Below are positions 5,769-63,122 of a stretch of 64,000 bases of DNA, one piece after another. Positions within the stretch are counted from its first letter, which is position 1; every line of letters starts with the position of its first letter. The notes beneath the pieces were generated by a model that ran no database searches, had not been told where the DNA came from, and saw only the letters and a program-made list of their open reading frames with translations. The stretch spans positions 375 through 64,374 of the forward strand of contig JAHFJP010000004.1 in NCBI GenBank assembly GCA_023245765.1, given 5' to 3'. This DNA is from Candidatus Peribacteria bacterium (lineage in GTDB: Bacteria; Patescibacteriota; Gracilibacteria; Peribacterales; Peribacteraceae). A program made the position numbers and the translations under genes.

Positions 5769-5851
5769 AATAATAAAATAAGATATTTTTCTAATTTAGT
5801 CAATAATTTGCAACAGACAGACGAATCCGCTCGTACCAGTGTGATAAAACA

Positions 5852-5880
5852 TTGACCCACCTTCGCTCGGTGTGTATATT
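5852..5880 (+). promoter_or_regulatory. sigma-70-like promoter candidate (TTGACC-17 nt-TATATT)
   Basis: -35 at 5852-5857 and -10 at 5875-5880, with a 17-nt spacer, in an AT-rich divergent intergenic region about 50 nt upstream of ATG 5932. Confidence 0.35.
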
Positions 5881-5931
5881 CAGTAGCCGCACGGCCGAGC
5901 TTCGGCGGGCAGGCATTTTTCCCCCGAAACG

Positions 5932-6135
5932 ATGAGCAGCAATTTTGCATCTATGGATCACTTCGATGGTATGGCCTGGGGCAGAGAATCGGCTGCAATC
6001 ATCCTGGATCGCGTCGGAAATGATCCCGCCAGAGCGCAGGCTGAGCTGCATAACTTGTCCCACGGCTTCGGAAAAGACGGAGAGTTCGCAAATGAAATGT
6101 CTCTTCTCTTGAGCCGAGTTATCAATCAACATTAG
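5932..6135 (+). CDS. small hypothetical protein (67 aa)
   Basis: ORF ends 4 nt before the YerC-like gene start, suggesting cotranscription. An antisense 120-aa ORF (5800-6162) competes with it. Confidence 0.4.
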   Translation: MSSNFASMDHFDGMAWGRESAAIILDRVGNDPARAQAELHNLSHGFGKDGEFANEMSLLLSRVINQH

Positions 6136-6139
6136 GACT

Positions 6140-6541
6140 ATGCCCACCCGCAAACGCTTCACCGAAGACAGTTACAAGAAGGAACCGTGGTTTCGTTCCC
6201 TGTGTCAGGCACTTCTTGGGTGCAAGAACGAAGAGGAAATGGGCAACTTCCTGCGTGATGTTGGGACTCTCAGTGAGCTCCAAGCCTGGGGTGAGCGTCT
6301 CGAGGTTGCCCGGCAGCTGAGTAAAGGCCTGAGTTACCGCGAAGTTGCACGCCTAACAGGTGCAAGCACGACGACCGTTACAAGAGTGGCCAAATTCATC
6401 GAAAACGGCCCCGGAGGTTATCGAAAGACACTCAACGTCCACCGGCATCATCGGATGCTCCATGCCCCCCAGGAGGCCAGTAAAGACCAACACAAAGCGG
6501 CAGCATCGGTCCTCCAGAAGTATCTGGACAAGAAGGCCTGA
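6140..6541 (+). CDS. TrpR-related YerC/YecD family DNA-binding protein
   Basis: LSELQAWGERLEVARQLSKGLSYREVARLTGASTTTVTRVAKFIENGPGGYR matches the YerC/YecD (Trp-repressor-like) HTH pattern. Confidence 0.8.
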   Translation: MPTRKRFTEDSYKKEPWFRSLCQALLGCKNEEEMGNFLRDVGTLSELQAWGERLEVARQLSKGLSYREVARLTGASTTTVTRVAKFIENGPGGYRKTLNVHRHHRMLHAPQEASKDQHKAAASVLQKYLDKKA

Positions 6542-6806
6542 GGGGCCTGTTTATGAGCTTTGACGGATAACCCCGACCGGCATTGTGCGCTGCCAGTTCG
6601 TCATCTTCTGGGCGAGCCAGATAAAGGGTTTCACAGTGGCGCTGTTGCGGCGGAAGCGGCCGTAATGGAGTGTCCGCTGCCAGGTGCGTGGTGAGAGCAG
6701 TGGTGTGGGAGGAGTGCGTTGCATGCCCTGTAGACGCGGCAATCGATCGATACTTACAGAATTACCCGGTCTTTCACTCCCCTCTCTGTATTACTGTGTT
6801 AATACA

Positions 6807-6835
6807 TTGACATCGTAACAGTAGGGGATTATCCT
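6807..6835 (+). promoter_or_regulatory. sigma-70-like promoter candidate (TTGACA-17 nt-TATCCT)
   Basis: Perfect -35 at 6807-6812, a 17-nt spacer, and a weak -10 at 6830-6835. It lies about 130 nt upstream of the 6965-6990 terminator. Confidence 0.3.
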
Positions 6836-6964
6836 GCCCCCGTGTTCAGAACTTTCACGAGTCACCGGCATGCCCATCATCACTCCCACGCAGGTGAGGA
6901 GAGGATGGCGTCGGCTGAACTCCAGTTCTGAATTGTATTGAGCCCTACTGGAAGCCGAAATCAT

Positions 6965-6990
6965 TCCCTCCACACTGGAGGGATTTTTTT
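6965..6990 (+). terminator. Rho-independent terminator
   Basis: 8-bp stem TCCCTCCA/TGGAGGGA with a 3-nt loop, followed by T7 (6984-6990). Confidence 0.6.
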
Positions 6991-7052
6991 GGCTCTTTTA
7001 CATCATCGTGGATCAACTTTTCTAACCTATTTATTTCTTTCTTCCCTTCACA

Positions 7053-7802
7053 ATGGATTCTGAATCTTTCAGACCTCGATCGGGTAGCGATGAGGCCGCA
7101 CTAGAAGAATACATACTTGAACTCATCAACAAACTTTCTCCCGAAGATAAACCAATGGCTCTGAGAGCTCTTACTCGTTACGAGCGCGAAGGAGCGGAAA
7201 GCACCTACAGCACCGAACCCCAGTCACTTATCCAACTCATCGATGATTTGCGTCTCCTTCGAAACGCTAACTGGGTTGGGGACTTGGGTGCGGGTCCCGG
7301 TGATGTCGTGGGTGCATTGGCAGATAAATACCCCCAACTTCAGGTTACTGGCATTGATATCAGTCCGACGTTCGTGGCGAAATTTAATCGCAACAAAAAA
7401 CGACAGAATGCTGGAATGGCAGTCGGGTTGATCGATCAGCCTCTCTCGATTGGTGCGGATAATCGAACAGCCGCCATCTCCGTCCTGACGCTTGATCGTC
7501 TGGTGAATCCCAAAATGCTTATCGACAACATGGCGAAATTCAATGCCGCAAAAATTCTTGCCACTCTTTTACCCATTGTGGCTGAAGATGATAATCCCAG
7601 TCTCCAGGGCACAAAAAACATCTACACAGCTCCCGAGAAGCGCGTTGTTCCCGGCAAGAATGCGCGTGATGATCGCCAAGAGCTTTGGAAGCTTCTGCAG
7701 CGCAGTTGGAACAGCCCGGTTGAATTTGCCACTGTTCCGTACGTGGTATCGAGCTCTGGTGACCGTCAGGAATATGAACTCGGTGTCTTTTTTACTTCTT
7801 AA
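7053..7802 (+). CDS. class I SAM-dependent methyltransferase
   Basis: VGDLGAGPGDVVGALADKYPQLQVTGIDISP is SAM-binding motif I plus the acidic post-I residue. Confidence 0.8.
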   Translation: MDSESFRPRSGSDEAALEEYILELINKLSPEDKPMALRALTRYEREGAESTYSTEPQSLIQLIDDLRLLRNANWVGDLGAGPGDVVGALADKYPQLQVTGIDISPTFVAKFNRNKKRQNAGMAVGLIDQPLSIGADNRTAAISVLTLDRLVNPKMLIDNMAKFNAAKILATLLPIVAEDDNPSLQGTKNIYTAPEKRVVPGKNARDDRQELWKLLQRSWNSPVEFATVPYVVSSSGDRQEYELGVFFTS

Positions 7803-7814
7803 CTTTTTCATCCC

Positions 7815-8609
7815 ATGAAAACGCAACAACTCGATCAAGTCTTTCGCATTCTGAGTCCTCGATACAGCGAAGAATTCTTCGCGGAAAATACATCGAAGCT
7901 CGGCGAAGAACTCAGCCGCGAAGGCATCCTGGTTCTCAATGATTTTCTCTCCCCGCGGGCCATCAAAGAACTCCAGGCGGAGGCCGCGGCGCTCAAGCCA
8001 GACGCATTCCGCAGCTCGTCCGCGTATAACCTGTACATCCTCCCCACAGATCCGAATTTCCCCGACGATTCGCCGCGTAACCGCAAATTCAAGACGACCA
8101 AAGGCTGCATTCCGGATGACAAGATTCCCCGCAGCTCCGCTCTGCGGACGCTCTACGATTCCCCCGCGTTCCGCAGCTTTCTCTGCAAGCTCCTCAAGCT
8201 GCAGGTGCTCTATCCCTACGCCGACGCGCTCTCAAGCATCAACATCAACTACTACGATCCAGGCGACGCGCTCGAATGGCACTTCGACAACGCCGACTTC
8301 GCCATCACGCTCCTCGTGAAGAAGCCGACAAAGGGCGGTGACTACGAATACTTCACCGACATGCGCTACGACGATGATGGCGACGAGAATTACGAGCTTG
8401 TCCGCCAGTGTATCGATGGCGAAGTCCCCCCGCAGCGCAAGTCCCTCGATGAAGGCGGACTCATGCTCTTCCGCGGCAACAAGTCACTGCACAGAGTGAC
8501 GCCCGTCGAAGCCGGCGAACGGATCCTCATCACACTCAACTTCAATACCAAGCCCGGTATCGCGCTCTCCGAAAAGTCCCGGCAGACATTCTTCGGGAGG
8601 ACGACATAA
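7815..8609 (+). CDS. Fe(II)/2-oxoglutarate-dependent oxygenase (HxD type)
   Basis: LEWHFDNADFAITLL (HxD), a distal His in NKSLHRVTPV, and a following Arg. Overall similarity by eye to ArpA/BesD-family free-amino-acid hydroxylases. Confidence 0.75.
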   Translation: MKTQQLDQVFRILSPRYSEEFFAENTSKLGEELSREGILVLNDFLSPRAIKELQAEAAALKPDAFRSSSAYNLYILPTDPNFPDDSPRNRKFKTTKGCIPDDKIPRSSALRTLYDSPAFRSFLCKLLKLQVLYPYADALSSININYYDPGDALEWHFDNADFAITLLVKKPTKGGDYEYFTDMRYDDDGDENYELVRQCIDGEVPPQRKSLDEGGLMLFRGNKSLHRVTPVEAGERILITLNFNTKPGIALSEKSRQTFFGRTT

Positions 8610-8633
8610 GTATTTTTATTCACCAAACTTTTT

Positions 8634-9233
8634 ATGAAATACAATGTTATTTTAAATCCGCCTATCGAAGACGACCTTCCAGATGATCCGGATGCTGCTC
8701 TGACAATAGCTGTTGAACGAGGCGTGCAATGCGAGAACGGTGTATACCGATTTCTTGATCCCGCGATTTCGATACCCGTTCTTTGCAATCTCGATCGCAT
8801 ACGCCCTCTGCTCAAGGGTGATTGGTGGAAGGATGACGTCTTGCAGTCCAAGGAAAAAGAAGAAGCAGGAGAGAAAACACTTCTCATTCCCGAAAGTTCT
8901 TTCGGCAAACCTCTGGAGATTGAGAATGATGAGTACTTCTGGAGAACGCTTTCGGCACGCGTTTTGACCCGATTCCTTCTCATCAACGTATTATCCGGAG
9001 GACCGCGGGCACTGGGGAATGACAGGTTTGTCCGGTCAGGCACTTCGGAGCCGATAAGGGATGCCCTCACTGCTCCGCCATTCTACGAGGTTGGAAACAA
9101 TGTCGTCGTTGGGTTTGATACCTATGGTTTTCTCAAGGCCTTCTATATTCAGAACTTTCAAAAAAGACCCAATATCGGTATCGCATTGAACGAAGAAGAT
9201 TGGAGGAAAACATATCGAAATAGAAAAACATAA
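8634..9233 (+). CDS. hypothetical protein (199 aa)
   Basis: Same strand, 24 nt after the oxygenase gene. Lower GC. No motif recognised. Confidence 0.6.
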   Translation: MKYNVILNPPIEDDLPDDPDAALTIAVERGVQCENGVYRFLDPAISIPVLCNLDRIRPLLKGDWWKDDVLQSKEKEEAGEKTLLIPESSFGKPLEIENDEYFWRTLSARVLTRFLLINVLSGGPRALGNDRFVRSGTSEPIRDALTAPPFYEVGNNVVVGFDTYGFLKAFYIQNFQKRPNIGIALNEEDWRKTYRNRKT

Positions 9234-9423
9234 TGCTATATCGAGCTGTCTCAGAGATCTGAGACAAGCTCTCTGGGCACTCGTTGTTCCTGGGGAGCTT
9301 GTCTCTAAAAGCGAGCACTGGCTTCGAGATTTTTTGAATCTGGGAGCCAGTATCTCTATCTCAAAATACCACCGTGGTAAAACAGTGATACTGGCGTTTT
9401 CCGGGGTCATCTATGATGCCTGC

Positions 9424-10461
9424 ATGGTCAATCCAGAGTTCATGCGCCGGTGTCTGGACCTCGCCTCCCGTGGTCGCGGCAGGGTCGGCAATGGCGCCCT
9501 GGTGGGGGCCGTCTTCGTCCGTCAGGGGATGATCATCGCCGAGGGGTTCCATGCCGCCTACGGAGCGTCCCATGCTGAGCGGGCACTCTTGGATGCGTAC
9601 ACCGGTGAAATCCTTCCTGAGGACGTTTTGTATGTGAATCTAGAACCATGCTGTCATCAGGGTAAGACTCCACCTTGTACAAATTTATTGATCGAGAAAG
9701 GCATCAAAACGGTCGTCTACGGAATGCTCGATCCAGACCCTCGTGTTAGCGGTCAGGGAGTGCAGGCTCTCAGGGCAGCTGGTATCAACGTCATCGGTCC
9801 TCTGGAGCGCGCTCTGTGTGAGCGTATGAATAGGGGATTCGTCTCGCTACGTACTAAGGGCAGGCCGTGGATCACACTCAAGCAAGCTCGTGATGCACAG
9901 GGGGCAATCAGCAATGACGATGGATCCTTCAAAAAGATCACCTCTGCCGATCAAGATGCCTGGTCCCACACATTCCTTCGTGCCCGCCATGACGCGATAT
10001 TGGTCGGTGTAGGATCAATTATTTCCGATAATCCTCTATTGAATATCAGATTTGCTCAAATAGTGAAATTTTCTCAAATGGAAGGGCTTAATGAAGATAA
10101 AATTAATGAAAATAATTTCATTAATCCCTACAGAATAGTATTGGATCCGCAGTGCCGTATTCCGATGGATGCAAAGGTCGTGACTGATACGCCGGAGAGG
10201 ACGATTATCTGCTTCAACGAAGGGCAAGAACAGGATGAAAAGGCCCTGACTCTAGGCGGACGGGGAGTTCATCTCGTTTCGCTCCCCATGCATGACGATG
10301 CATTCAACTGGGAGGCGCTTTGGCGTGTGCTCATAACGCCCACGGCAACATTCCCGGGAATAGCATCAATCCTCGTCGAAGGTGGCAGCAGAACATGGAA
10401 GGAATTCCAGAGGGCGCTCTTGGTGGACGAAGCCATTCATCTCGTTGGCAGGTTCCTGTAA
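9424..10461 (+). CDS. ribD: bifunctional riboflavin biosynthesis deaminase/reductase
   Basis: HAERALL and NLEPCCHQGKTPPC (CDA zinc motifs) plus a C-terminal RibD reductase domain (ILVEGGSRTW). The ORF opens at TTG 9334, but ATG 9424 (MVNPEFMRRCLDLA) fits the family N-terminus. Confidence 0.9.
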   Translation: MVNPEFMRRCLDLASRGRGRVGNGALVGAVFVRQGMIIAEGFHAAYGASHAERALLDAYTGEILPEDVLYVNLEPCCHQGKTPPCTNLLIEKGIKTVVYGMLDPDPRVSGQGVQALRAAGINVIGPLERALCERMNRGFVSLRTKGRPWITLKQARDAQGAISNDDGSFKKITSADQDAWSHTFLRARHDAILVGVGSIISDNPLLNIRFAQIVKFSQMEGLNEDKINENNFINPYRIVLDPQCRIPMDAKVVTDTPERTIICFNEGQEQDEKALTLGGRGVHLVSLPMHDDAFNWEALWRVLITPTATFPGIASILVEGGSRTWKEFQRALLVDEAIHLVGRFL

Positions 10462-10839
10462 TGGCGTACCTGTTTCTTTTGAATGCATGGGAACAAGACG
10501 ATACCCCTTCAGAGCCATATCAAGCTGCTGCATGATTGCAGTTTTTGCACTTCCCTTGATCCCTTCAATTCTGTAGTCATCTATCGTCACCCATGTAGTG
10601 ATAGGCTCAGATCTGCCTGCAATCTTGATCTGAACGACGGCGCTCTTTTCATCATCTTCGATAATCACATCAACGATACGATTGTGATACAGAAAGTCGA
10701 GCGTCCGAAAAGCAGCATCAGCCCGCGACAATATTGTCTCTGCCGTTTTGGGTGCTGCATCAATTTTGCCGTTGAGATGGAGTCCCTCTGTTGATTCAAC
10801 AAGTATGTTCAATTGATGATCGGTAAAGGACCGGGACAT
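10366..10839 (-). CDS. hypothetical protein (157 aa)
   Basis: ATG ORF convergent with ribD. Its last ~31 codons overlap the ribD 3' end by 96 nt. No family recognised. Confidence 0.45.
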   Translation of the reverse strand: MSRSFTDHQLNILVESTEGLHLNGKIDAAPKTAETILSRADAAFRTLDFLYHNRIVDVIIEDDEKSAVVQIKIAGRSEPITTWVTIDDYRIEGIKGSAKTAIMQQLDMALKGYRLVPMHSKETGTPLQEPANEMNGFVHQERPLEFLPCSAATFDED

Positions 10840-11590: not shown

Positions 11591-11657
11591 GAAACCGAGG
11601 AAACCGACGTAACCAAGGTAACCGAGGATCGTCGGTTTCTTCGGTTTCGTCGGTTAC
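11591..11657. repeat. Family-A long imperfect palindrome built of 9-mers (GAAACCGAG-type), copy A1
   Basis: GAAACCGAG GAAACCGAC GTAACCAAG GTAACCGAG-GATC-GTCGGTTTC TTCGGTTTC GTCGGTTAC. Located between the divergent FMN-reductase and nrdJ genes. Confidence 0.85.
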
Positions 11658-14800: not shown

Positions 14801-15316
14801 ATGGATACGCTAGCGATCAGCCTCTCGATGAACTTCCAGTACGGTGTGCCGCTCGAAAGTCTCTGCGAGAAACTCGTCGGCGCACGCTTTGAACCCATGG
14901 GTATGACGGCCAACAAGGAAATCCCAATCGTCCGCTCTGTCATGGATTACCTCGGCCGCTGGATGGCGCTCAAGTTCCTCACGAAGGACAAAGCCAAGAA
15001 GTTCCACAACGGCGAGCTCGTCGACAAAGCGTACGCAATCGGCAGCAAGAGCAAGGAAGCATTCGCGATGCGGTTGCCTGTGGTCGACGAAGGATCTTCC
15101 GTTGCGATGGACTTTTCCATGGTGACAGAAGAGAAAGCCCAGACCGAACTCACACAGGCCGTCAGTGACGTCGAGCACAGCACAGACAAGATTAGCAACG
15201 CGAAGCTCCAGGGTTATACGGGGTCCATGTGCAGCGGGTGCGGGAGCTTCAAATTGAAGAGGAATGGGAGTTGTGAGGTTTGTCTGGATTGTGGGGCGAC
15301 GTCGGGGTGTTCCTAA
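11864..15316 (+). CDS. nrdJ: adenosylcobalamin-dependent (class II) ribonucleotide reductase
   Basis: WSQVATDIVVSKYFRKAG, NPCSEYMFLDNTACNLASINL, and a C-terminal Cys cluster CSGCGSFKLKRNGSCEVCLDCG. The computed ORF (from 11282) is over-extended across repeat A1 and the opposite-strand gene. ATG 11864 is the first plausible start. Confidence 0.93.
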   Translation: MNPSSSSAASKSSHRGLGQEGVIQRLKKGETVETPRGKKDVGHHKALTIKRVFTTVGSDPLEHVVYEKRTSKIMNTNGSVVFEMQGAEIPADWSQVATDIVVSKYFRKAGVPQFDAQGNILKNDKGEVITGPERSVKQVVRRLAGCWRHWGETHGYFESKLDAQAFEDELSHMLTHQMAAPNSPQWFNTGLNTAYGITGPSQGHYYCDPETGEVRRSEDAYTHPQPHACFIQSVDDDMVNEGGIMDLWVREARLFKFGSGTGTNFSKLRSAGEPLSGGGQSSGLMSFLKIGDRAAGAIKSGGTTRRAAKMVCLDLDHPDIEEFINWKVNEEKKVAAMAAAGYDTDFNGEAYLTVSGQNSNNSIRIPHAFFEAIEHDGDWALTWRTELKKAATEGRAPVPKKMLKARNLWDQISYAAWSCADPGVQYDTTINDWHTCPEDGRINASNPCSEYMFLDNTACNLASINLLKFYNQEHGTFEIERFIHAVHLWTIVLEISVLMAQFPSKEIAELSYKFRTLGLGFANLGAMLMQMGIPYDSPKGRAICGAITAILTGESYATSADMAQFLGAFPGYNKNRDHMLKVIRNHRRAAYNAPAREYENLHVLPVGIQAADCPDDLLHAAKEAWDRALAKGEKYGYRNAQVTVIAPTGTIGLLMDCDTTGVEPDFALVKFKKLAGGGYMKIANQSVFPAMQALGYSEAEVRDIMRYVMGTLSLEGAPHINRVSLKQKGFTDEDIAAVEKNLSQVFEIGFAFNKWTLGDKTMERLGFTADQTADFNFNLLKALGFTQEQIDEANLVICGHMTVEGAPLLRDEHLPVFDCANKCGKTGKRFISAEGHIRMMAVCQSFISGAISKTINLPNEATIEDCKNAYLLSWKLGIKANALYRDGSKMSQVLSNKSDTKDFKDSSAGVPPAEVKIVEKIVIKEVPRRRKLPDERLAIAHKFSIAGHEGYIHVGMYEDGAPGEIFIKMSKEGSTLSGVMDTLAISLSMNFQYGVPLESLCEKLVGARFEPMGMTANKEIPIVRSVMDYLGRWMALKFLTKDKAKKFHNGELVDKAYAIGSKSKEAFAMRLPVVDEGSSVAMDFSMVTEEKAQTELTQAVSDVEHSTDKISNAKLQGYTGSMCSGCGSFKLKRNGSCEVCLDCGATSGCS

Positions 15317-15384
15317 GAAACCGATGTAACCGAGGGAACCGAGGATCGTCGGTTGCTTCGGTTTCGTCGGTTGCCTCGGTTGCC
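15317..15384. repeat. Family-A 9-mer palindrome, copy A2
   Basis: Begins at the nucleotide after the nrdJ TAA. Centre GATC at 15344-15347. Confidence 0.85.
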
Positions 15385-35448: not shown

Positions 35449-35526
35449 GAAACCGAGGTAACCGAAGACTCCGAGGTAACCGAGGATCGTCGGTTTCTTC
35501 GGTTGCATTGGTTGCTTCGGTTTCTT
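35449..35526. repeat. Family-A 9-mer palindrome, copy A3
   Basis: Begins at the nucleotide after the protease TAG. Centre GATC at 35485-35488. Confidence 0.85.
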
Positions 35527-36229: not shown

Positions 36230-37306
36230 GTGCGGCCAATGAACAATATCGATCCACCCATTGCGAGTACCTTCTTGAGCCTACAACGCGGCGAGGCACC
36301 AGCCGATCTCCAGATGCGTCAGGAAGTGGGATTCGTCATCGAGAAGGATCCCGCTATGGTTGAACTGTGGCGGAGAATCAGGATGCTTCGGAACAGGATG
36401 ATGGACACCTTGGTGTTCGGTGAGACGGGGACAGGGAAGGAGATCCTTCCAATCTTGATCGGAAGATTTCTGGGCAAAGAACCCGTCACAATCAATTGCA
36501 GCACAATCCATGGGGACATGGCAGAATCCGAACTGTTTGGTCATGTGAAGAACGCCTTCACCGGTGCCGCAAAAGAAGACCGTCCGGGACTCTTCGGTGC
36601 AACGAAGGACGGTGGCCTGGCGGTGCTTGACGAGGTCAACCATCTACCCGAGGCGATTGCTCCGAAGTTGCTGCGCGTTTTTGATCCCCGCAAATTCAAG
36701 CCTGTCGGCGCGGACAAGGAGAAGGACTATGGCGGACATGTGATTGCGATGGGCAGTGATCCGCTTCATAAAATGCTTCTGGCCCTCCAAAACCGCATAC
36801 AGGCGTGGGAGCTTGAAGTTCCCGCTGTTCGAGATCGGACGCCCGAACATAAGATAGTCCTGGCGAATTTTCTCGCGGCAAAAAGCGGATTTGCTCTTGC
36901 TGAGAATGCGGTTCAGAGATTGACAGAATTGGAATACCGGAAGGGGAACGTTCGGGAAATGCGCAACCTCGTTAACAGGGCCATCATGTTTACTCTTGAA
37001 CGGGATAACACGCAGACACAGATTGAATTGGACGATATTGAGGAGGCGGGAAAGATTAGCGCCAAGAATGGAGATGAGAATAACGGCATGCTGGAATCAC
37101 CAAACATGGAGAAATTAGTCGCAAACCTCGCTGATCAATTAATCTTAGGGAAAATTGCTCTGGGGGCAGCCAAGAACCTCTTTGCGACGTTCGAGAACAG
37201 CTTGATTCGGGCGGTTTTCGAGAGAAGCGGCAGAAATGTAGCGAAAACAGCCGGACTCCTGGGGCTCGACAGAAAAACCGTGCAGACCCGCTTAGCCGCA
37301 GCATAG
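36230..37306 (+). CDS. sigma-54 interaction domain AAA+ activator (bEBP-like, no N-terminal sensor domain, C-terminal Fis-type HTH)
   Basis: Walker A GETGTGKE, ELFGHVKNAFTGA (a GAFTGA-loop variant), Walker B AVLDEV, NVREMRN, and HTH RNVAKTAGLLGLDRKTVQTRL. Confidence 0.8.
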   Translation: MRPMNNIDPPIASTFLSLQRGEAPADLQMRQEVGFVIEKDPAMVELWRRIRMLRNRMMDTLVFGETGTGKEILPILIGRFLGKEPVTINCSTIHGDMAESELFGHVKNAFTGAAKEDRPGLFGATKDGGLAVLDEVNHLPEAIAPKLLRVFDPRKFKPVGADKEKDYGGHVIAMGSDPLHKMLLALQNRIQAWELEVPAVRDRTPEHKIVLANFLAAKSGFALAENAVQRLTELEYRKGNVREMRNLVNRAIMFTLERDNTQTQIELDDIEEAGKISAKNGDENNGMLESPNMEKLVANLADQLILGKIALGAAKNLFATFENSLIRAVFERSGRNVAKTAGLLGLDRKTVQTRLAAA

Positions 37307-37371: not shown

Positions 37372-38766
<1,395 letters not shown>

Positions 38767-38768
38767 CT

Positions 38769-39191
38769 ATGATCCACGCAAGCATCATCACACCGGACGG
38801 TTCCATCTTCGATGGCGATGTCGATGCCATCTCGCTGCCCACGCCCGATGGCGAAATCACCGTGCTCCCACATCACATCCCGCTCATCAGCATCGTGAAC
38901 GCCGGAACGATCATGGTCCGTCAGGGCAAAGAGGAAACGCTCTTCGCCTGCTCGAGTGGCGTTATCGAAGTCGACGGGAAGTCCATCCGCGTCCTCACCG
39001 ATACTGCTGATCGCGCCGAGAAACTTGAAGAAGCGGCGGTCGAGGCGGCGAAGGCGCGCGCCGAAAAACTGCGCAGCGAAAAGCGTCACGACGAAGAAGG
39101 CTTCGCTGAAGCGACAGCGCTCATGGAACGCGAATTGGCCCGCCTTTCGACGATTCGACGTCAGAAAGCGCGGGGGCATCATGCGAAATAA
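38769..39191 (+). CDS. atpC: F-type ATP synthase subunit epsilon
   Basis: Directly follows atpD. IITPDGSIFDGDVDAISLPTPDGEITVLPHHIPLIS is the typical epsilon N-terminal barrel. Confidence 0.9.
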   Translation: MIHASIITPDGSIFDGDVDAISLPTPDGEITVLPHHIPLISIVNAGTIMVRQGKEETLFACSSGVIEVDGKSIRVLTDTADRAEKLEEAAVEAAKARAEKLRSEKRHDEEGFAEATALMERELARLSTIRRQKARGHHAK

Positions 39192-39226
39192 TCCTTGCCA
39201 GGTCAGTGCCGTGCCGCCGCGGGATG

Positions 39227-40840
39227 TTACGCTACCAATCCTTTTTCTTTGAGGATGTGATCCACGTCGGACGGTTGCTTGGGTCGCACCCTCACGACAG
39301 TAATTTTCCCGTGCTGCAGAAGCATCGCATCCCGTAATCGATCAAGGTGAGGATGTCGGTCATGACCAGCGCTGTCGATTTCGAGGTTGATACCCGCATG
39401 CGGAAAAAAAATATCCAGTTGATATCCGTGTTTCTGGACGTCTGTCTCGAAGCAGGTGATGTCCGGAATTTTCCTCATATAGTTAATCACATCCCGTTCA
39501 TTCTTTCCGATGAGAGATGAGTTGTTCCACGTTTGCAGAGCACTCGTAATCTGCGGCGGCACAGGCACTCCAGCATAGAGACACGCATGGTACATCTGGC
39601 ACGTGTGTGTATAGCCTTCGGAATCTTTCTTTGTGGCGTCGAGAATGAATTCTCGGATCACTTCCCACTCCTGATTCCCGGATAGACGTGTCAGCACCGC
39701 TGCTGACCACGCAATGTTGATTGATCCTTGTGTATCGAACTGCACGGTTTTCATAAGACTCTCCCTGCAAACCTTTACGATGAACTTCATCACGTCCGGA
39801 TGCGTGATTCCCAGCCATGCTGCTGCCGTACAGATGGTCGAGATCGCCTGCGGGTCGAAAAAATCCGGTTGCTTGCCGCGTTCACAGGCGAACAACAGTA
39901 ATTTTTCCACCGCGGGATCACGGATCGGCATGGATGCGGCAGTATGGAGAATCTTGCAGATATCCAGACCGCTGAACTTGCTCTGTTGACTCGTTACTTT
40001 GGTGCACGCATTGGCCACGAATGCCTCGGTCACCGGGGCAATTTTTTGGCAGTGGAATGTGGCGCTCGCACCGCACATGTCTGCCGTTTGTCGCGCATTA
40101 TAGAAATCAGCGTTTTGTGAGATTTTGTCATAGGCTCTGCAAAGCAAAAAAATCATGTCGTCGTCAAATTTTTCCTCTCCTTTGCTGTTTCGTGCCAACG
40201 CATTCACCATCGTCGTGATGAGAACCGGGTGCCCTGTCAGTATTGCGATGTCCTGATGTTTCGCGAAATCCAATAATACTGAAAAATCATTTTGCTTTCT
40301 CAGTCTCAGGATATCAAAGAACATCTTTTGTTGAACGTCAGTCATTCCACTGATGTCGGGTCCTTGTTCACCAACATCTTCGAAGCGTTCTCTGTACCCG
40401 TCCAGAATGGATCCAATTTTTCGCGCCTTCCTTTGCAGCATATCGTCACCCTGCAGATTGCAATCATCCACATAGTCGAGCAGCCGGTAGATTTCCTTCG
40501 TTCCCTCGGGTGGCGGATTGTCATCATCATTGTCAAATCGACTGAGCCACGCGGCAAAGCTCCCCGGCGGCTTTTCGCTCAGCGCAGACGCATCCATACG
40601 GTAGACATTCCAGATAGCCTCCTTCCATCGTTGCAGCAAACATGCCTGCAACATGCTTCGGATCTTTGGAATGGACCACCCGCGGTTCGCATTCGTATGC
40701 CTGCCCGATAGAGCATCGACCTGCTGACTGCATATCTGCAGTACCCGGACATCGGAACTCTTTGCCAAGACATGTATTTCCTCATGCGGAAGTGGCATCG
40801 ATCTCGGTTTCATAATCAACAATATGAACTTAAATTGCAT
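39227..40840 (-). CDS. helical-repeat protein with C-terminal DUF559/RAP-type (Vsr-like PD-(D/E)XK fold) domain
   Basis: C-terminus GYQLDIFFPHAGINLEIDSAGHDRHPHLDRLRDAMLLQHGKITVVRV fits the DUF559/RAP pattern. It is preceded by at least 4 repeats of ~38-40 aa (F-x-pQ-x-IS-x-I-x-x-A-A-x-LGI...) reminiscent of FASTK/OPR repeats. GC is lower than in the flanking genes. Start is ATG 40840 or 40813, because the longer computed ORF would overlap atpZ. Confidence 0.7.
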   Translation of the reverse strand: MQFKFILLIMKPRSMPLPHEEIHVLAKSSDVRVLQICSQQVDALSGRHTNANRGWSIPKIRSMLQACLLQRWKEAIWNVYRMDASALSEKPPGSFAAWLSRFDNDDDNPPPEGTKEIYRLLDYVDDCNLQGDDMLQRKARKIGSILDGYRERFEDVGEQGPDISGMTDVQQKMFFDILRLRKQNDFSVLLDFAKHQDIAILTGHPVLITTMVNALARNSKGEEKFDDDMIFLLCRAYDKISQNADFYNARQTADMCGASATFHCQKIAPVTEAFVANACTKVTSQQSKFSGLDICKILHTAASMPIRDPAVEKLLLFACERGKQPDFFDPQAISTICTAAAWLGITHPDVMKFIVKVCRESLMKTVQFDTQGSINIAWSAAVLTRLSGNQEWEVIREFILDATKKDSEGYTHTCQMYHACLYAGVPVPPQITSALQTWNNSSLIGKNERDVINYMRKIPDITCFETDVQKHGYQLDIFFPHAGINLEIDSAGHDRHPHLDRLRDAMLLQHGKITVVRVRPKQPSDVDHILKEKGLVA

Positions 40841-40870
40841 GTAGTCAAACTCAGGATTATTATCTGTTTG

Positions 40871-41110
40871 ATGAGATCTTCTCAGCGTTCCATTGGAGCC
40901 GACCTTCTCCTCGCGGTCCGCCTGGCCTGGAATTTCGGCTACATCATCGCGATCCCGGCAGTCGCGTTCGGCTTTGGTGGGGCGTCCCTCGATAAGCACT
41001 ACGGAACCTCTCCCACGTTTATCCTGATCGGCTTCGCGCTGGCCCTCGCGCTCTCGGGATTGGGGATTTGGCGGGCGGTGAAGGAGATTGTGCGGGAGCA
41101 GGGGAGGTGA
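40871..41110 (+). CDS. atpZ: AtpZ/AtpI-like small membrane protein of the ATP synthase operon
   Basis: 79 aa with two TM helices (LAWNFGYIIAIPAVAFGFGG...TFILIGFALALALSGLGIW), immediately upstream of atpB. Confidence 0.55.
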   Translation: MRSSQRSIGADLLLAVRLAWNFGYIIAIPAVAFGFGGASLDKHYGTSPTFILIGFALALALSGLGIWRAVKEIVREQGR

Positions 41111-41188
41111 GGGAACCGAGGCAACCGACGGAACCGAAGAAACCGAGGATCGTCGGTTACTTTGGTTGCTTCGGTTTCCTCGGTTGCT
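41111..41188. repeat. Family-A 9-mer palindrome, copy A4
   Basis: Begins at the nucleotide after the atpZ TGA. Centre GATC at 41148-41151. Lies inside the atp operon, between atpZ and atpB. Confidence 0.85.
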
Positions 41189-41240
41189 TTAGCGCGTCCC
41201 TTGAACCTCTCCCTCCCCCCTGCTAGGTTTCCTCCACTCC

Positions 41241-42008
41241 ATGGCCGCAATTGAAGCCCCATCACTGGCCTCCGAAGCTGTCGGACATCTCGGATTCTTC
41301 GAGATTCGCAATACCATGCTGATGGCATGGCTCGCGATGGCCGTGTTCATTGTTCTTGGATTGCTCCTCCGGCGCACGAAGTACAAAGAAGTTCCTGGGC
41401 GCTTCCAGGCGTTCATGGAGCTGATCGTCGAGGGCCTCTTCGACTTCTTCGATTCGATCGTCGGTGACCGTGCGCGGACTAGGAAATTCTTCCCGCTGGT
41501 CGCAACGATCTTCCTCTTCTTGGTTCTCGCCAACTGGATGGGCATCCTCCCGGGTGTGGGAAGCATCACAATCCAGGGCATGCATGAAGGGCATATGACG
41601 GCTATCCCCCTGTTCCGTTCGATGAATGCCGACGTGAACATGACCCTCGCGATCGCGATTGTCTCCGTGGTCATGACCCAAGTCTTCGGCATCGCCGCGC
41701 TCGGCATCCTGCCGTATGCCGGCAAGTACTTCGTGGCACCGTGGAAGGATCCCATCATGAGCTTCGTCGGCATCCTTGAGCTCATTGCGGAATTCGCCAA
41801 GGTCATCTCGTTCACCTTCCGTCTCTTCGGCAATATCTTCGCGGGCGAAGTCCTCCTCGTTGTCATCTCCTTCCTGCTGCCGTACTTCGGTCCGCTCCCG
41901 TTTCTCGGGCTCGAGCTCTTCGTCGGATTCATTCAGGGGCTCGTGTTCGCGCTGCTGACGATTGTCTTCCTGGCGATGGCGACGGTGAGTCACGGAGAGC
42001 ATGCCTAG
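41241..42008 (+). CDS. atpB: F-type ATP synthase subunit a
   Basis: Multi-pass membrane protein with SFTFRLFGNIFAGEVLL (essential Arg motif). Confidence 0.93.
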   Translation: MAAIEAPSLASEAVGHLGFFEIRNTMLMAWLAMAVFIVLGLLLRRTKYKEVPGRFQAFMELIVEGLFDFFDSIVGDRARTRKFFPLVATIFLFLVLANWMGILPGVGSITIQGMHEGHMTAIPLFRSMNADVNMTLAIAIVSVVMTQVFGIAALGILPYAGKYFVAPWKDPIMSFVGILELIAEFAKVISFTFRLFGNIFAGEVLLVVISFLLPYFGPLPFLGLELFVGFIQGLVFALLTIVFLAMATVSHGEHA

Positions 42009-42107
42009 ACGCGGGTCTTCGACCCGCGTACGCACGCCGAAGGCGTGCGCTGGTTCATCATAGATTGGGCTTCTACTCCGGTCTTGAACAATCTCTTAGA
42101 CCCTTGA

Positions 42108-42437
<330 letters not shown>

Positions 42438-42489
42438 TCGTTATTCAGGAAAGGGCGTGCCATCGGCGCGCCCCTACGTCCAACCAATT

Positions 42490-42996
42490 ATGGAACTTCT
42501 CTTGAAGCTCGGCGTTGACTGGAAGCTGTTGATCGCGCAGATCGTGAACTTCACGATTCTGGTCTCGGTCCTGACGTACTTTGTCTACCGGCCGCTGCTC
42601 AATCTGCTCGATGCCCGCCGCGCGAGGATCGCCAAAGCGATGGAGGATGCCGCACGCATCGAGGAGCAGAACCGGGAACTTGAACAATTCCGCACCGAGC
42701 AACTCAAGAAGATCGACCAGGAAGTCGGCGCGTTACTCGAGCGCGGCAAGCGGCAGGGCGAGACGATGCGCGACGAGATTTTGGCTTCCGCAAAGCGCGA
42801 AGCCGATGCCATCCTCGCGAAGGGGGAACGGCAGCTGGAGGAGGAGCGCACCCGGGTCTTCCAGGAGATTCAGGCGTCACTCGCATCCATGATCGTCCGC
42901 ATGACCGAGAAGATCCTCACGCGCGAGTTCTCCGCTGCCGATCAGCAGCGCATTCTCTCCGATCTCGAAAAGAACATCCCCTCGCTCCTCCGATGA
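42490..42996 (+). CDS. atpF: F-type ATP synthase subunit b
   Basis: N-terminal TM helix then a long charged helix (FVYRPLLNLLDARRARI...). ATG 42490 or GTG 42457. Confidence 0.85.
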   Translation: MELLLKLGVDWKLLIAQIVNFTILVSVLTYFVYRPLLNLLDARRARIAKAMEDAARIEEQNRELEQFRTEQLKKIDQEVGALLERGKRQGETMRDEILASAKREADAILAKGERQLEEERTRVFQEIQASLASMIVRMTEKILTREFSAADQQRILSDLEKNIPSLLR

Positions 42997-43394
42997 ACGC
43001 CGCCCTCACCCTCGCCGCACGGACTCTCGTGGAGCATCTGCGTTCCGGCATGTCCCGGGAAGAGATGGCAGCTGCCTGTGATGCGGTTCTCCATTCGCTG
43101 CATAGTAGCGGTCTTTCCGGCAGTCAGATCGCGCAGTTTCCCAAGGTCGTCGCCCAGGAACTGCGCAGGCACGGACCCGTTGGTGCTGTTCTCTCCACGT
43201 CGTCGGGGACCACCGGCGCGTCGGCTCCTGCCATCGGTACAGCTCTCGAACAGTCGCTCGGGCGTTCCATCGATCTGGAAGAGTCCGCTGAGCCGTCTCT
43301 CATCGGTGGCGTTCTTCTCACTGTGGGCGATGAACGTGTTGATTTCACTCTGCGCGGGGCGCTCAACCAATTGAATGCTCATCTTACTTCGTAA
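42993..43394 (+). CDS. atpH: F-type ATP synthase subunit delta (short, 133 aa)
   Basis: Position between atpF and atpA, with ATGA overlap with atpF. C-terminal [25 protein letters not shown] is OSCP-like. Shorter than typical delta subunits. Confidence 0.75.
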
Positions 43395-43435
43395 TGTACA
43401 GACGCCCCGTCGGGGCGTCTCTACCACCCCATCAC

Positions 43436-44962
43436 ATGACTCTCTCTCAAACTCTCCTCAAGACGCTCAACGAACGCATGGCGTCGTACAGCAAACAGGC
43501 GGGCCACGAACACGTCGGCACCGTTCTCTCCGTCGGTGACGGCATTGCGAGCATCGACGGGCTCTCGAAGATTGGTGCGATGGAAATGATCGACTTCGGC
43601 AACGGCGTGCTCGGGAGTGCACTCAACCTGGGTCAGGATACGATTGGTTCCATCATCTTCGGCGATTACGGAAAGGTGAAGGAGGGTGACACGGTCAAAT
43701 CGCTCGGCAAAGTGCTTTCAGTTCCTGTTGGCGAAGAGCTGATCGGGCGCGTCGTCTCGCCGCTTGGTGTTCCCAAAGACGGCGGAGCGCCGATCGCGAG
43801 TAAAAAGTTCTACCCCGTCGAGAAAATCGCACCGCGCGTCATCGAGCGCAAATCGGTGACCACTCCGCTCCAGACCGGCATCACCGCCATCGACGCAATG
43901 ATCCCGATCGGGCGCGGCCAGCGCGAACTGATCATCGGTGACCGTCAAACAGGCAAGACTGCGGTTGTCATCGATACGATCATTAACCAGAAGCACACGC
44001 AGGGCACCGACCGGCCCGTCATCTGCATCTACGTCGCGATCGGCCAGAAGGAATCGAAAGTCGCGAAAATCGTCACCGAGCTCCAGAAGCACGGTGCCAT
44101 GGACTACACGATCGTCGTCTCCGCCGGCGCCTCCGAGCCCGCGGCGCTTGCGTACATCGCCCCGTTCGCAGGATGCGCGATGGGCGAGTACTTCGTCGAC
44201 CAGGGCAAAGATGTGCTCTGCATCTACGATGATCTTTCCAAACACGCGTGGGCCTACCGCCAGATCTCCCTCCTTCTGAGGAGACCTCCTGGTCGCGAAG
44301 CCTATCCCGGCGACGTCTTCTATCTCCATTCGCGACTCCTCGAGCGCGCGGTCTGCATGGCCGATGCCAACGGCGGCGGCACCCTCACGGCTCTGCCGAT
44401 CATTGAAACACAGGAAGGCAACGTCTCGGCCTACATTCCGACGAACGTTATTTCTATTACAGACGGCCAAATCTTCCTCGTCGGCGATCTCTTCTACAAA
44501 GGCATCCGGCCCGCGGTCGACGTCGGTATCTCCGTCTCGCGCGTCGGCTCCGCCGCGCAAGTGAAGGCGATGAAGAAGGTCGCGGGGAAACTGCGTCTCG
44601 ACATGGCCCAGTATCGCGAGCTCGCCGTGTTCGCACAGTTCGGGTCCGATCTGGATGCCGCGACGCGCAAGCAGCTCGACCGCGGTGCGCGATTGACCGA
44701 GATCCTCAAGCAGGGCCAATACGAGCCGCTGCCGGTCGGTGAGCAAGTCGCGATGCTCTACGCCGGCGTCAATGGACTCCTCGACGAGATCCCCGCTGAG
44801 TCGGTGAAGAAATTCCAGGAGGACTTTCTCGGGCTCCTCCGGAGCAAGCACCCCGATGTTCTCCAGACGCTTGGGAAGGAAATCACGCCGGAGGTGGAGG
44901 AGAAGCTGAAGCGGCTCGTTTCGACGCTGAAAGAACAGAAGCGATATTCTTCAGCTGCTTAG
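43436..44962 (+). CDS. atpA: F-type ATP synthase subunit alpha
   Basis: [21 protein letters not shown], and full-length similarity to the family. ATG 43436 follows the inter-cistronic hairpin. Confidence 0.97.
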
Positions 44963-45068
44963 CTGTTTAGCTTTTTAGCTTCTTCGCTTTTCCGAAGTCA
45001 TGCATTTCCAGACGAAAGCTAACAAGCTAAACAGCTAACAAGCTAAACAGCTAACAAGCTAAACAGCT
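44953..45068. repeat. Long imperfect hairpin built of tandem 8-mers (AGCTGTTT / AGCTAAAC type) between atpA and atpG
   Basis: The left arm of 4 units overlaps the atpA stop (44960-44962). The right arm has about 6.5 complementary units and ends 8 nt before the atpG ATG. Confidence 0.85.
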
Positions 45069-45076
45069 CCGTCACT

Positions 45077-46012
45077 ATGGCCAGCTCCCTCCGCGATCTC
45101 CGGCGCAAAATGAAGGCGATCAAGTCGACCAAGCAAGTCACGAAGGCGATGGAACTGGTCGCGGCATCCAAGATGCGCCGGGCCGTGCAAAATGCGGTGC
45201 TACTGCGCAAATACGCACTCACCGCGTGGGCGATCCTCCAGAAGATCGCGCTCAGCCACCGGGGCAGGCATCTGTGGCTCACGGAGCGGCCGGTGAAGCG
45301 CATTCTCGCGATCCTCATCACCAGTGACCGTGGTCTCTGCGGTAGCCTCAATACGCAGCTCTTCCGTTCGGTGGGGCACTACGTGGCGGCATGCAAAGAT
45401 ATGCAGGGATTCGAAACCATCGATTTCATCGCCGTGGGGAGGAAAGGCCAGCAATACCTCCAGCGATCCGGGCAAACCGTGACGGGCGCTTTTCCCGCAC
45501 TCAGCAATCATCCGTCGTTCCGCGATGTGCTGCCCATCGCCCGCATGGCGATCGATGCGTTTAAAGAGGGGACCTACGATCACGTGGTCCTGCTCTCCAC
45601 CGATTTCCTCTCCGCGCTCGTCCAGGAACCGGCCACCAAACTCCTGCTGCCGTTTTCGGAAACGGCGTTCCAGGAGATGATCCGCGAACTGCTCCCCCGC
45701 AAGCGCATCTCCAAAGAGGAAGAAGAGGCGATCAAATCCGTGACCCGTCTTTCATCCGATTACCTCTTCGAACCGACCGAACCCGAAGTCCTCAACCGCA
45801 TTTTGCCGCAGCTGACCGAAATGCAGATCTATCAGGCGGTGCTGGAGTCGGCCGCCTCCGAACACTCCGCCCGGATGGTCGCGATGCGCAACGCCACCGA
45901 TAACGCGTCCGATATCCTCTCCGACCTCAATCTGACCTACAACCAGACGCGCCAGGCCAATATCACGGCGGAATTGGCGGAACTCTCGGGCGCTGCGGCG
46001 GCGCTCAATTGA
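45077..46012 (+). CDS. atpG: F-type ATP synthase subunit gamma
   Basis: LRDLRRKMKAIKSTKQVTKAMELVAASKMRRA N-terminus and C-terminal YNQTRQANITAELAE. Confidence 0.93.
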   Translation: MASSLRDLRRKMKAIKSTKQVTKAMELVAASKMRRAVQNAVLLRKYALTAWAILQKIALSHRGRHLWLTERPVKRILAILITSDRGLCGSLNTQLFRSVGHYVAACKDMQGFETIDFIAVGRKGQQYLQRSGQTVTGAFPALSNHPSFRDVLPIARMAIDAFKEGTYDHVVLLSTDFLSALVQEPATKLLLPFSETAFQEMIRELLPRKRISKEEEEAIKSVTRLSSDYLFEPTEPEVLNRILPQLTEMQIYQAVLESAASEHSARMVAMRNATDNASDILSDLNLTYNQTRQANITAELAELSGAAAALN

Positions 46013-50176: not shown

Positions 50177-50230
50177 AAGGGCTGGAGGATGGTACCCATG
50201 TAGACAGCCTGCTGCAAGCTAAATTCTCAG

Positions 50231-50309
50231 AGGAAACCGAGGGAACCGAAGAGTCCGACGCAACCGAGGATCCTCGGTTCCTTCGGTTTCGTCGGTTACT
50301 TCGGTTGCT
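50231..50309. repeat. Family-A 9-mer palindrome, copy A5
   Basis: Centre GGATCC at 50268-50273. Lies between divergent rpsU and gyrB. Confidence 0.85.
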
Positions 50310-50347: not shown

Positions 50348-52402
<2,055 letters not shown>

Positions 52403-62591: not shown

Positions 62592-63122
62592 TCAATTGGT
62601 CTCGATGATTCTTCTCGCATTCTCACGGTCACGCAGCCCGAATTCAAAACCCAGTGCCAGAGTTTTATTCAAAACACTGGCGAATGTCGCAGACATATCC
62701 CTGATCGTTTTTTCAAGTTCAACCAGTTCCGGCATCGAACCACTTGTGATCCCTTCACTCTCTGGATCAACACTGACTGATCCTCTTCCACTCGCTGCGA
62801 AAGAAATTCCTTGCGAGAATTGCGCACCCAAGACCAGGAAGATTTTTCGTCCAAACGTCGCCAGCAGTTGTTCAAAGGCTGCCGCTTCGTCCTCATTCAT
62901 CGGTACGCATGAAATATGTACCAGTTCTCTGCCGAATTGTTTCAAAAAGGGATGTAACAATTTGATGGCACCATCAATCGAATCTTCTTCCAGCGTATCA
63001 GCAGAAACAGCATGATTCCGATTTTTTTCGGCTGAAATGTATACACACAGCATCAATGGCATTAAAACATAAAAATTATTATTGTGCAATTTCTGCTTCG
63101 GCAGAGAAGCCATCTTCCTCAA
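62592..63122 (-). CDS. hypothetical protein (176 aa)
   Basis: ATG ORF in a lower-GC patch. Its stop directly abuts the rlpA-like stop (convergent). No family recognised. Confidence 0.5.
   Translation of the reverse strand: MRKMASLPKQKLHNNNFYVLMPLMLCVYISAEKNRNHAVSADTLEEDSIDGAIKLLHPFLKQFGRELVHISCVPMNEDEAAAFEQLLATFGRKIFLVLGAQFSQGISFAASGRGSVSVDPESEGITSGSMPELVELEKTIRDMSATFASVLNKTLALGFEFGLRDRENARRIIETN

Follow-up and report, generated by a model that had tools for sequence, protein, structure and literature searches.

We analysed a 64,000-nt stretch of Candidatus Peribacteria contig JAHFJP010000004.1 (hereafter the window) in which a minus-strand gene, here called gene X, lies inside the ATP synthase cluster. 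Gene X occupies 39227..40840 and is an intact open reading frame (ORF) of 537 codons from an ATG at 40840; coordinates throughout are those of the window and residue numbers are counted from this ATG. Pfam assigns the gene order as a sigma54-activator-like gene, atpD and atpC on the plus strand, gene X on the minus strand, and then atpZ, atpB, atpE, atpF, atpH, atpA and atpG again on the plus strand. An earlier sequence-only reading had described gene X as the opposite-strand gene between atpDC and atpZBEFHAG, and this order bears it out. On its left gene X is convergent with atpC (F1 epsilon; 38769..39191, plus strand) across a 35-nt spacer that contains no significant terminator hairpin (z = -0.5), and on its right it is divergent from the atpZ/atpI-like gene (Pfam ATPase_gene1; 40871..41110, plus strand).

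The start of gene X can be placed at several positions. The longest minus-strand frame (39227..40999) would give 590 amino acids from a GTG and would overlap atpZ, the public gene call (P0001) begins at 40654 and gives 475 amino acids, and 40813 and 40798 are further candidates, so that by start codon the product ranges from 475 to 590 amino acids. It had been suggested that gene X diverges from atpZ by only 30-58 nt; this holds for the start at 40840 and fails for that at 40654, where the spacer to the atpZ start at 40871 is 216 nt. No Shine-Dalgarno signal was found at a proper distance before any candidate start. Upstream of atpD, atpB, atpE, atpH, atpA and atpG (for example at 41211-41240 and 42141-42170) the leaders are C/T-rich (ccctcc, tttcctccc) and contain no Shine-Dalgarno sequence, and since the atp genes themselves lack this signal its spacing cannot be used to choose the start of gene X.

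The GC content of gene X is 0.50 and its GC content at third codon positions (GC3) is 0.57, compared with 0.58-0.62 and 0.76-0.79 for the atp genes (atpC, at 0.68, and atpH, at 0.62, being exceptions in GC3). The gene is indeed lower in GC than its neighbours, as first noticed from the sequence, though it shares this trait with other genes of the window: the GC3 of the long ORFs averages 0.67 +/- 0.10, and gene X sits about one standard deviation below this mean, in the low tail. The GC content of the window as a whole, 56.7%, fits that reported for Ca. Peribacter, 58.5% (PMC4736985). Further blocks of low GC and low GC3 (0.41-0.56) lie at 604-1320, 4295-10800 and 62592-63122, and these are possibly other accessory or recently gained genes. 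There is no paralogue of gene X elsewhere in the window. A region of 8-10 kb around gene X was recovered in two independent ENA metagenome assemblies with no differences inside the gene, and as the same locus recurs in both, the junctions are real and do not stem from an assembly chimera. By chance, 537 consecutive codons free of stops would arise with a probability of about 6e-12. We conclude that gene X is a real gene.

Relatives of gene X were hard to find with fast methods. A word-indexed search of 5.8 billion clusters with gene X as query returned only gene X itself, and the same search with a three-sequence alignment (A1, consisting of gene X and two Peribacteria proteins, P0003 and P0005) added one extra eukaryote-type protein. 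It missed P0003 and P0005 even though the query alignment includes them and the collection contains them, and its negative results need caution. An unfiltered phmmer (HMMER) scan of 1.84 billion cluster representatives at E<=1e-3 recovered 26 remote relatives besides gene X. Twenty-four of these are apparently eukaryotic (E 2.5e-10 to 8e-4); they include two Paulinella proteins and one protein encoded on a gene-dense, eukaryote-like contig alongside a protein kinase and clathrin light chain. When 20 of the 26 were run against Pfam, 18 were found to carry FAST_1, RAP, DUF1601 or DUF6832 (FAST_1 scoring above its cut-off in 16 of the 18 eukaryotic-type proteins run), while the two bacterial ones carry DUF559. 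The alignments to FAST_1/RAP proteins cover gene X residues 238-400, and identity to the eukaryotic matches is 24-35% over parts of the protein.

The two bacterial relatives, P0003 (730 aa) and P0005 (770 aa), both come from Peribacteria, with loci in MFYJ01000013.1 and DATDVK010000089.1. P0003 represents the KKW39028.1 / OGJ71533.1 cluster, which is annotated only as hypothetical in Candidatus Peribacteria/Peregrinibacteria metagenome-assembled genomes. BLASTP aligned gene X with P0003 at 1e-16 over X residues 271-526, which takes in repeats and nuclease domain, and with P0005 at 4e-14, the two alignments together covering X residues 269-532; both are collinear from X residue ~270 to ~530, and identity is 25-26% over ~260-290 residues comprising three repeats, linker helices and the whole nuclease domain. 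Both proteins pass the Pfam cut-off for DUF559 at full length (34 bits for P0003, 29.5 bits for P0005) and, like gene X, they appear to have FAST/OPR-like repeats followed by a DUF559-type domain with a D...EIDG.HH motif; in gene X, S-A stands in place of the G-P of their EIDGPHH. They differ from gene X in being ~200 aa longer, in N-terminal halves that cannot be aligned with it, and in their surroundings, where they adjoin an SLH-domain protein and small genes of no assigned family, away from atp genes. A tblastn search reached loci L007 and L008. A search of GTDB representative genomes (among which the window's own genome is not included) and JGI metagenome contigs found only Peribacter P0003-type loci, and a search of IMG/VR found no viral relative. 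The related Peribacteria proteins are already public, as hypotheticals only, and gene X is an orphan of a single population. Judged by these alignments, gene X is best described as a highly diverged member of a small repeat-DUF559 family restricted to Peribacteria.

Alignment A1 was compared by hhalign with A3, an alignment of 13 eukaryote-type FAST/RAP proteins, and the two matched with a probability of 99.9% (E 4.6e-37); the 473 columns of the match take in the repeats as well as the nuclease domain. These matches show that the FAST/OPR-RAP architecture and the C-terminal ~340 residues of gene X are homologous.

The last ~70 residues had been proposed to fit the Vsr-like PD-(D/E)XK pattern shared by DUF559 and RAP, and the proposal stood up well. 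Residues 446-532 (39245..39505, minus strand) are predicted to form the alpha-beta-beta-beta-alpha-beta core of Vsr-like PD-(D/E)XK nucleases with a further helix at the end: in the AlphaFold (AF2) model, helix 446-456 is followed by strands 465-470, 473-479 and 484-488, helix 491-511, strand 514-518 and helix 523-532, with a block-mean predicted local distance difference test score (pLDDT) of 73-90. Alignment with the DUF559 structure 3hrl, with P0003 and P0005 and with seven RAP domains places D476 (39413-39415) on the conserved Asp, E487-I-D489 (39380-39382 and 39374-39376) on the E-x-D motif and H493 (39362-39364) on the conserved His, giving a putative active site encoded within 39362..39415 on the minus strand. 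D476 is nearly invariant in A2, a 16-sequence alignment, and S-A is found in gene X where the aligned proteins have G-P or G-G. Among known structures, the A1 profile matched 3hrl at E 0.003 and PvuRts1I weakly, and in a Foldseek search of the BFVD viral models the only high-probability matches were local ones, to DUF559 and Vsr proteins (3.3-4.4 A over 95-114 columns).

Within the DUF559/RAP pair the domain appears to belong on the DUF559 side, while the repeats are of the FAST/OPR kind. The isolated domain of P0003 scores 39.3 bits against DUF559 and that of P0005 33.7 bits; against RAP the Peribacteria C-termini score 17 bits (16.9 for P0003) or not at all. For a eukaryotic control (P0009) the balance is reversed, with 49 bits for RAP and 13.6 for DUF559. 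In addition, RAP domains have an insertion of 5-10 residues past the His that is missing in gene X, as it is in the bacterial proteins.

Upstream of the nuclease domain, residues 203-440 (39521..40234, minus strand) are predicted to form an alpha-solenoid of tandem antiparallel-helix units. At least four helical repeats of ~38-40 aa had been noticed by eye, and the peptides quoted for them and for the C-terminal domain are all present where they had been placed. The clearest units begin at F289, F328 and F368 and follow the pattern F-x-x-Q...I...A-A...L; their in-register score gives z = 5.8 over within-unit shuffles, z stays near 5 when units at 203 and 248 are added, and only 3 of 1000 whole-protein shuffles matched the observed repeat score anywhere at a spacing of 38-41. 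The repeats have drifted far, as self-BLAST of gene X detected no internal repeat and a strict unit hidden Markov model, built from anchored units of the relatives, convincingly recognised a single unit (352-383). We conclude that the repeats are degenerate but real, and that the earlier count of at least four is a fair one, six being suggested by the model.

A single-sequence AlphaFold prediction was unusable (pLDDT 49.7), so the model was built with the 16-sequence alignment A2 as its multiple sequence alignment. In this model helix-turn-helix hairpins, six in all and repeating every 39-45 aa, begin at residues 205, 249, 291, 330, 370 and 410, and from residue 201 onward the block-mean pLDDT is 63-97 and mostly exceeds 70. 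When the model was compared with the PDB by Foldseek, the top 16 matches were all organellar helical-repeat proteins (E from 7e-6). They comprise Toxoplasma gondii mitoribosome proteins, several annotated as RAP-domain proteins (9i05, 9g6k), together with trypanosome RESC6, Polytomella mL123 and mS107, Tetrahymena mitoribosome proteins and, at rank 8, Polytomella ASA2. The structure prediction and search that had been proposed as a check thus yielded a solenoid and nuclease core whose best matches are organellar RAP and repeat proteins. The likeness to FASTK/OPR repeats, first suggested by residue spacing, is in this way supported by phmmer, hhalign and Foldseek and not by direct Pfam matches.

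The N-terminal ~200 residues (40241..40840, minus strand) are predicted to be helical, with pLDDT <50 and an acidic stretch, DNDDDNPPPEG; no homologue of this region was detectable, and with a true start at 40654 part of it could belong to the 5' leader. The poor prediction of this segment, the ambiguous start codon and the failure to find a close homologue among ~15 billion proteins would be compatible with gene X being a decaying or functionless ORF left from an insertion event. We regard this as very unlikely, given that the ORF is intact over 537-590 codons, that the motif residues are all conserved and that the helical array is confidently modelled.

The order of domains in gene X is also that of the eukaryotic FASTK/OPR/HPR-RAP proteins (human FASTKD1-5, Chlamydomonas and Paulinella OPR-RAP proteins, apicomplexan RAP proteins and RESC6), in which an array of ~37-40-aa hairpins precedes a C-terminal Vsr-like domain. 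Gene X differs from them in being bacterial, in having no organelle-targeting peptide and only ~6 repeats, and in a domain that looks closer to DUF559 and has no RAP insertion. Most of its detectable relatives are apparently eukaryotic, the Paulinella proteins and the protein on the eukaryote-like contig among them, and its GC content is below that of its neighbours, and we therefore weighed whether gene X is a eukaryotic RAP/OPR gene that the bacterium gained recently by horizontal transfer. The evidence makes this hard to credit: identity to the eukaryotic matches is low and coverage partial, the best matches over the full architecture are the Peribacteria proteins, the C-termini of those proteins prefer DUF559 (39 and 34 bits) over RAP (17 bits) while the eukaryotic control does the opposite, and gene X lacks the RAP-type insertion after the His.

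Bacterial DUF559/Vsr proteins (PF04480; Neisseria gonorrhoeae 3hrl, Escherichia coli Vsr and I-Bth0305I) share the predicted core fold and the D...E-x-D...H residues with gene X. They are small and stand-alone or are fused to other partners, and act on DNA where their activity is known, whereas gene X adds a ~240-residue FAST/OPR-type solenoid upstream. A limited literature search, which is no proof of absence, found no link of DUF559 with FAST/OPR repeats in bacteria or in the Candidate Phyla Radiation (CPR). RAP domains have been described as chiefly a eukaryotic feature, a few bacteria and archaea having one or two candidates (PMC8190603), and a Parachlamydia sequence has been placed among eukaryotic ones (PMC3424549).

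The Ralstonia RipS/SKWP type III effectors and the RAP protein of Orientia tsutsugamushi (KJV97331.1) resemble gene X in being bacterial and in having OPR-like repeats of ~38-42 aa, with a RAP domain in the Orientia protein (PMC7729196). They come from Proteobacteria with eukaryotic hosts and secretion systems and were not among the relatives of gene X at E<=1e-3; the distinction drawn here between them and gene X is by published description. By analogy with these proteins, gene X might be an effector exported by an episymbiotic CPR cell to bind or cut host RNA. The bacterial OPR/RAP-like proteins described so far are from host-associated bacteria (PMC7729196), Peribacteria are inferred to be symbionts in which strain variation is concentrated in interaction proteins (PMC4736985), and gene X is strain-specific, with an N-terminal region of ~200 residues that is modelled at low confidence. 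On the other side, neither a signal peptide nor another secretion signal can be recognised in it (judged by eye, MQFKFILLIMK has too short an h-region), no secretion-system genes adjoin it and its nuclease domain is of the DUF559 type and not of the RAP type. We consider export as an effector an improbable role.

The genomic setting was examined by comparing nine related atpC-atpZ loci whose AtpC is 74-89% identical to that of the window. The AtpC of the window is up to 92% identical to metagenome proteins; the best named matches are to Candidatus Peribacteria (74%) and Peregrinibacteria. In all nine neighbourhoods the genes run PrsW - S41 peptidase - VTT_dom - atpD - atpC - atpZ - atpB-E-F-H-A-G on one strand. 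Gene X is absent from every one of the nine junctions. The placing of beta and epsilon (atpD-atpC) first is seen in the window (37396-46012) and in loci L009-L018 and L026; this DC-first order characterises the lineage, in which atpDC-ZBEFHAG as a rule forms one contiguous block. DNA similarity to the relatives ends at ~39180 and returns at 40901, which confirms the earlier description of gene X as inserted, and from these break and return points we delimit a lineage-specific segment (39192..40870) between atpC and atpZ of which gene X is the sole content. No Rfam family was found in this segment. Because the insertion splits the operon, a promoter for atpZBEFHAG would have to lie in the divergent region between gene X and atpZ (40655..40870), where a consensus scan found sigma70-like hexamers on the minus strand only (40848-40819 and 40885-40856).

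The junction is occupied differently in different relatives. In L011, L015/L016 and L017 atpC and atpZ are tight, with an overlap or a gap of ~18 nt. A PhdYeFM antitoxin and PIN toxin pair lies between them in L009/L010 (L009 6585-7257), a 359-aa orphan with a Tat-like N-terminus in L013/L014 (L013 811-1890), and an AAA_14/DUF4143 ATPase, on the minus strand like gene X, in L027 (686-2017) and a second contig. L012 (768-1295) and L026 (5427-6301) have stretches of 530 bp and 875 bp, respectively, without convincing genes, the ORF in L012 looking spurious. None of the cargo that was compared with gene X (the L013 protein, the L012 ORF, the L026 spacer and the L027 ATPase) showed homology to it. 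We conclude that in the atpDC-ZBEFHAG operon of Peribacteria the atpC|atpZ junction acts as a hypervariable slot for insertions, and that gene X, found in one population only, is an accessory gene specific to its strain of Candidatus Peribacteria (CPR).

These results bear directly on the suggestion that gene X regulates atp transcripts. A dedicated post-transcriptional regulator or processing factor, a bacterial analogue of the organellar OPR/FASTK proteins, would fit its position between atpC and atpZ and its divergence from atpZ, and the eukaryotic members of the group often target specific organellar mRNAs, ATP synthase transcripts included (this is general knowledge; see PMC12242768 for ATP8/6-CO3). 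However, nine junctions without gene X, either tight or filled with unrelated cargo, indicate an accessory insertion in a hotspot and not an atp regulator. Moreover, the only bacterial homologues lie in an SLH-domain neighbourhood and not beside atp genes, the low GC3 marks gene X as foreign, and the insertion interrupts an operon that is otherwise contiguous. The suggestion is accordingly not upheld, and we give it very little weight.

A related thought concerns the ATP synthase itself. The A2 profile also matches two Polytomella ATP-synthase subunits, ASA2 (E 2.4e-16) and ASA3 (5e-6; PDB 6rd4_2 / 6rd4_3), and Foldseek lists them too, ASA2 at rank 8, so that a gene inside the atp cluster could be imagined to encode a structural subunit associated with ATP synthase, analogous to the chlorophycean mitochondrial ASA2/ASA3. 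But gene X is on the opposite strand, strain-specific, foreign in composition and missing from relatives that share the same ATP synthase genes, and because the A2 profile is mostly eukaryotic its match to ASA2 says little about gene X. The likeness, set against the location of gene X in the atp operon, is a curious coincidence; the evidence speaks against a link, and we regard a subunit role as extremely unlikely.

A potential explanation for the presence or absence of an insertion between two conserved genes is that gene X is a free-standing, homing-endonuclease-like selfish gene, whose repeat array would recognise DNA and whose Vsr-like nuclease would cut atpC|atpZ junctions lacking the gene, so that it spreads by repair ("intronless homing"). 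I-Bth0305I, a homing endonuclease, belongs to the Vsr/DUF559 clade (PMC3424549; PMC11879112), and the catalytic residues of gene X appear intact. The several unrelated cargos in the slot mean that a general hotspot accounts for the pattern, the repeats are homologous to RNA-binding FAST/OPR arrays, the Peribacteria homologues lie at a different and apparently stable locus, and gene X has been seen in one population only. Homing is thus very doubtful.

The explanation we favour, and hold to be probable, is that gene X encodes an accessory Peribacteria repeat-plus-DUF559 protein, located in an insertion hotspot, which cuts nucleic acid in a conflict-related or accessory role. By analogy with family members, the alpha-solenoid of ~40-aa hairpins (residues ~203-440) would read single-stranded nucleic acid. 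The array would bring the protein to a specific nucleic acid, more probably RNA than DNA, and the Vsr-like PD-(D/E)XK endonuclease domain of bacterial DUF559 type (~446-532), whose predicted metal-binding and catalytic residues D476, E487, D489 and H493 are intact, would cut nearby. What is shown comprises the gene and its surroundings, the homology, the predicted fold, the conserved residues and the variability of the slot; binding and catalysis are attributed to gene X from what is known of the families, and its target and biological role are likewise inferred. One eukaryotic member of the wider superfamily, FASTKD5, cuts RNA substrates in vitro and needs the conserved Asp to do so (PMC12242768). 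The location of the gene would follow from the hypervariability of the atpC|atpZ junction. The company kept in this slot (a toxin-antitoxin pair, a DUF4143 ATPase and orphans), taken with the foreign composition of gene X, suggests a conflict-related or otherwise dispensable role, and we think defence, a toxin-like function or interaction with a host or competitor more likely than regulation of ATP synthase.

Several observations weigh against the proposal of an accessory nucleic-acid-cutting protein. The whole gene X protein has no match in Pfam or NCBIfam even at E<=10, and its C-terminal 91 aa alone reach only 13.6 bits (E 0.062) against DUF559 (PF04480), where the cut-off is 20.6 bits. RAP (PF08373; gathering threshold 24.2 bits) gave no match with the full protein at E<=10 or with the C-terminal 91 aa, and FAST_1 (PF06743) and FAST_2 (PF08368) gave none at E<=10 with the full protein or with the repeat region alone. 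Of the Pfam comparisons that had been suggested, those with RAP, FAST_1 and FAST_2 were therefore negative and that with DUF559 remained below threshold, although the domains of P0003 and P0005 pass and gene X can be aligned with these from end to end. With scores below these thresholds gene X is not filed under RAP, FAST_1, FAST_2 or DUF559, and we place it, from the profile and phmmer matches, as a diverged member of the broader FASTK/OPR/HPR superfamily. PADLOC returned only a weak match to a nuclease core (mREase_II, 14.3 bits, E 0.0047) and no defence-system model. The inserted segment contains no partner or immunity ORF, and neither a target-site duplication nor terminal inverted repeats were found around it. 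Three assemblies have no single-nucleotide polymorphism inside gene X, so selection on it cannot be read.

The structural and biochemical comparisons likewise contain points on this side. The Foldseek matches have low TM-scores (0.2-0.4), which is what a flexible solenoid whose N-terminus is disordered would be expected to give, and since A2 consists mostly of FAST/RAP proteins the structural matches are not fully independent of the sequence result. The RAP domain of FASTKD4 has the fold and the conserved Asp and yet appears inactive (PMC11879112). Moreover, DUF559, Vsr, I-Bth0305I and PvuRts1I act on DNA (PMC3424549), so that an RNA target for gene X is less than certain and a DNA target is possible.

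FASTK/OPR/HPR-RAP proteins are regarded as a eukaryotic invention that controls organellar RNAs, and the few reported bacterial examples, from intracellular or plant-pathogenic bacteria, have been interpreted as transfers from hosts. An organelle-type architecture that occurs in a CPR lineage with a bacterial DUF559-type domain bears on where this architecture arose, and gene X bears on what CPR symbionts do to the nucleic acids of other cells. A bolder view is that the eukaryotic FASTK/OPR/HPR-RAP factors have in the Peribacteria repeat-DUF559 proteins, gene X included, a prokaryotic sister lineage or even their progenitor type. In these proteins a programmable array of helical repeats would be joined to a Vsr/DUF559 nuclease that is still bacterial, and CPR cells would use them as sequence-directed RNA or DNA endonucleases in conflicts with hosts, phages or competitors. 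We think this unlikely; were it true, the origin of a supposedly eukaryote-specific RNA-processing architecture would lie in bacteria. Provided that sequence recognition by the array is modular and that the nuclease has activity, gene X would be a small, natural repeat-guided nuclease. The atpC|atpZ slot is in any case a useful marker site for strain-level accessory genes in Peribacteria.

Two further features were noted around the atp operon. The sigma54-activator-like gene (36230-37306, plus strand) lies between the VTT_dom gene and atpD and encodes a Sigma54_activat/AAA+ protein with HTH_8 and no receiver domain; its GC3 is 0.60. It is missing at that position in L009, L011, L015, L017 and L026, and we conclude that it is a second lineage-specific insertion beside the atp operon.

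The window also contains intergenic palindromes resembling repetitive extragenic palindromic (REP) elements, at 11593-11655, 15310-15381, 35451-35522, 41105-41185 and 50226-50306, with a partial copy at 52102-52125 and another in L012 (248-331). Each consists of three to four 9-nt units (~AACCGANGN) followed by their reverse complement, and the pattern gave 22 matches where 0 were expected. The resulting hairpins of ~70-80 nt stand directly past gene ends, and for the one that separates atpZ from atpB the folding energy is -59.3 kcal/mol (z = -7.4).

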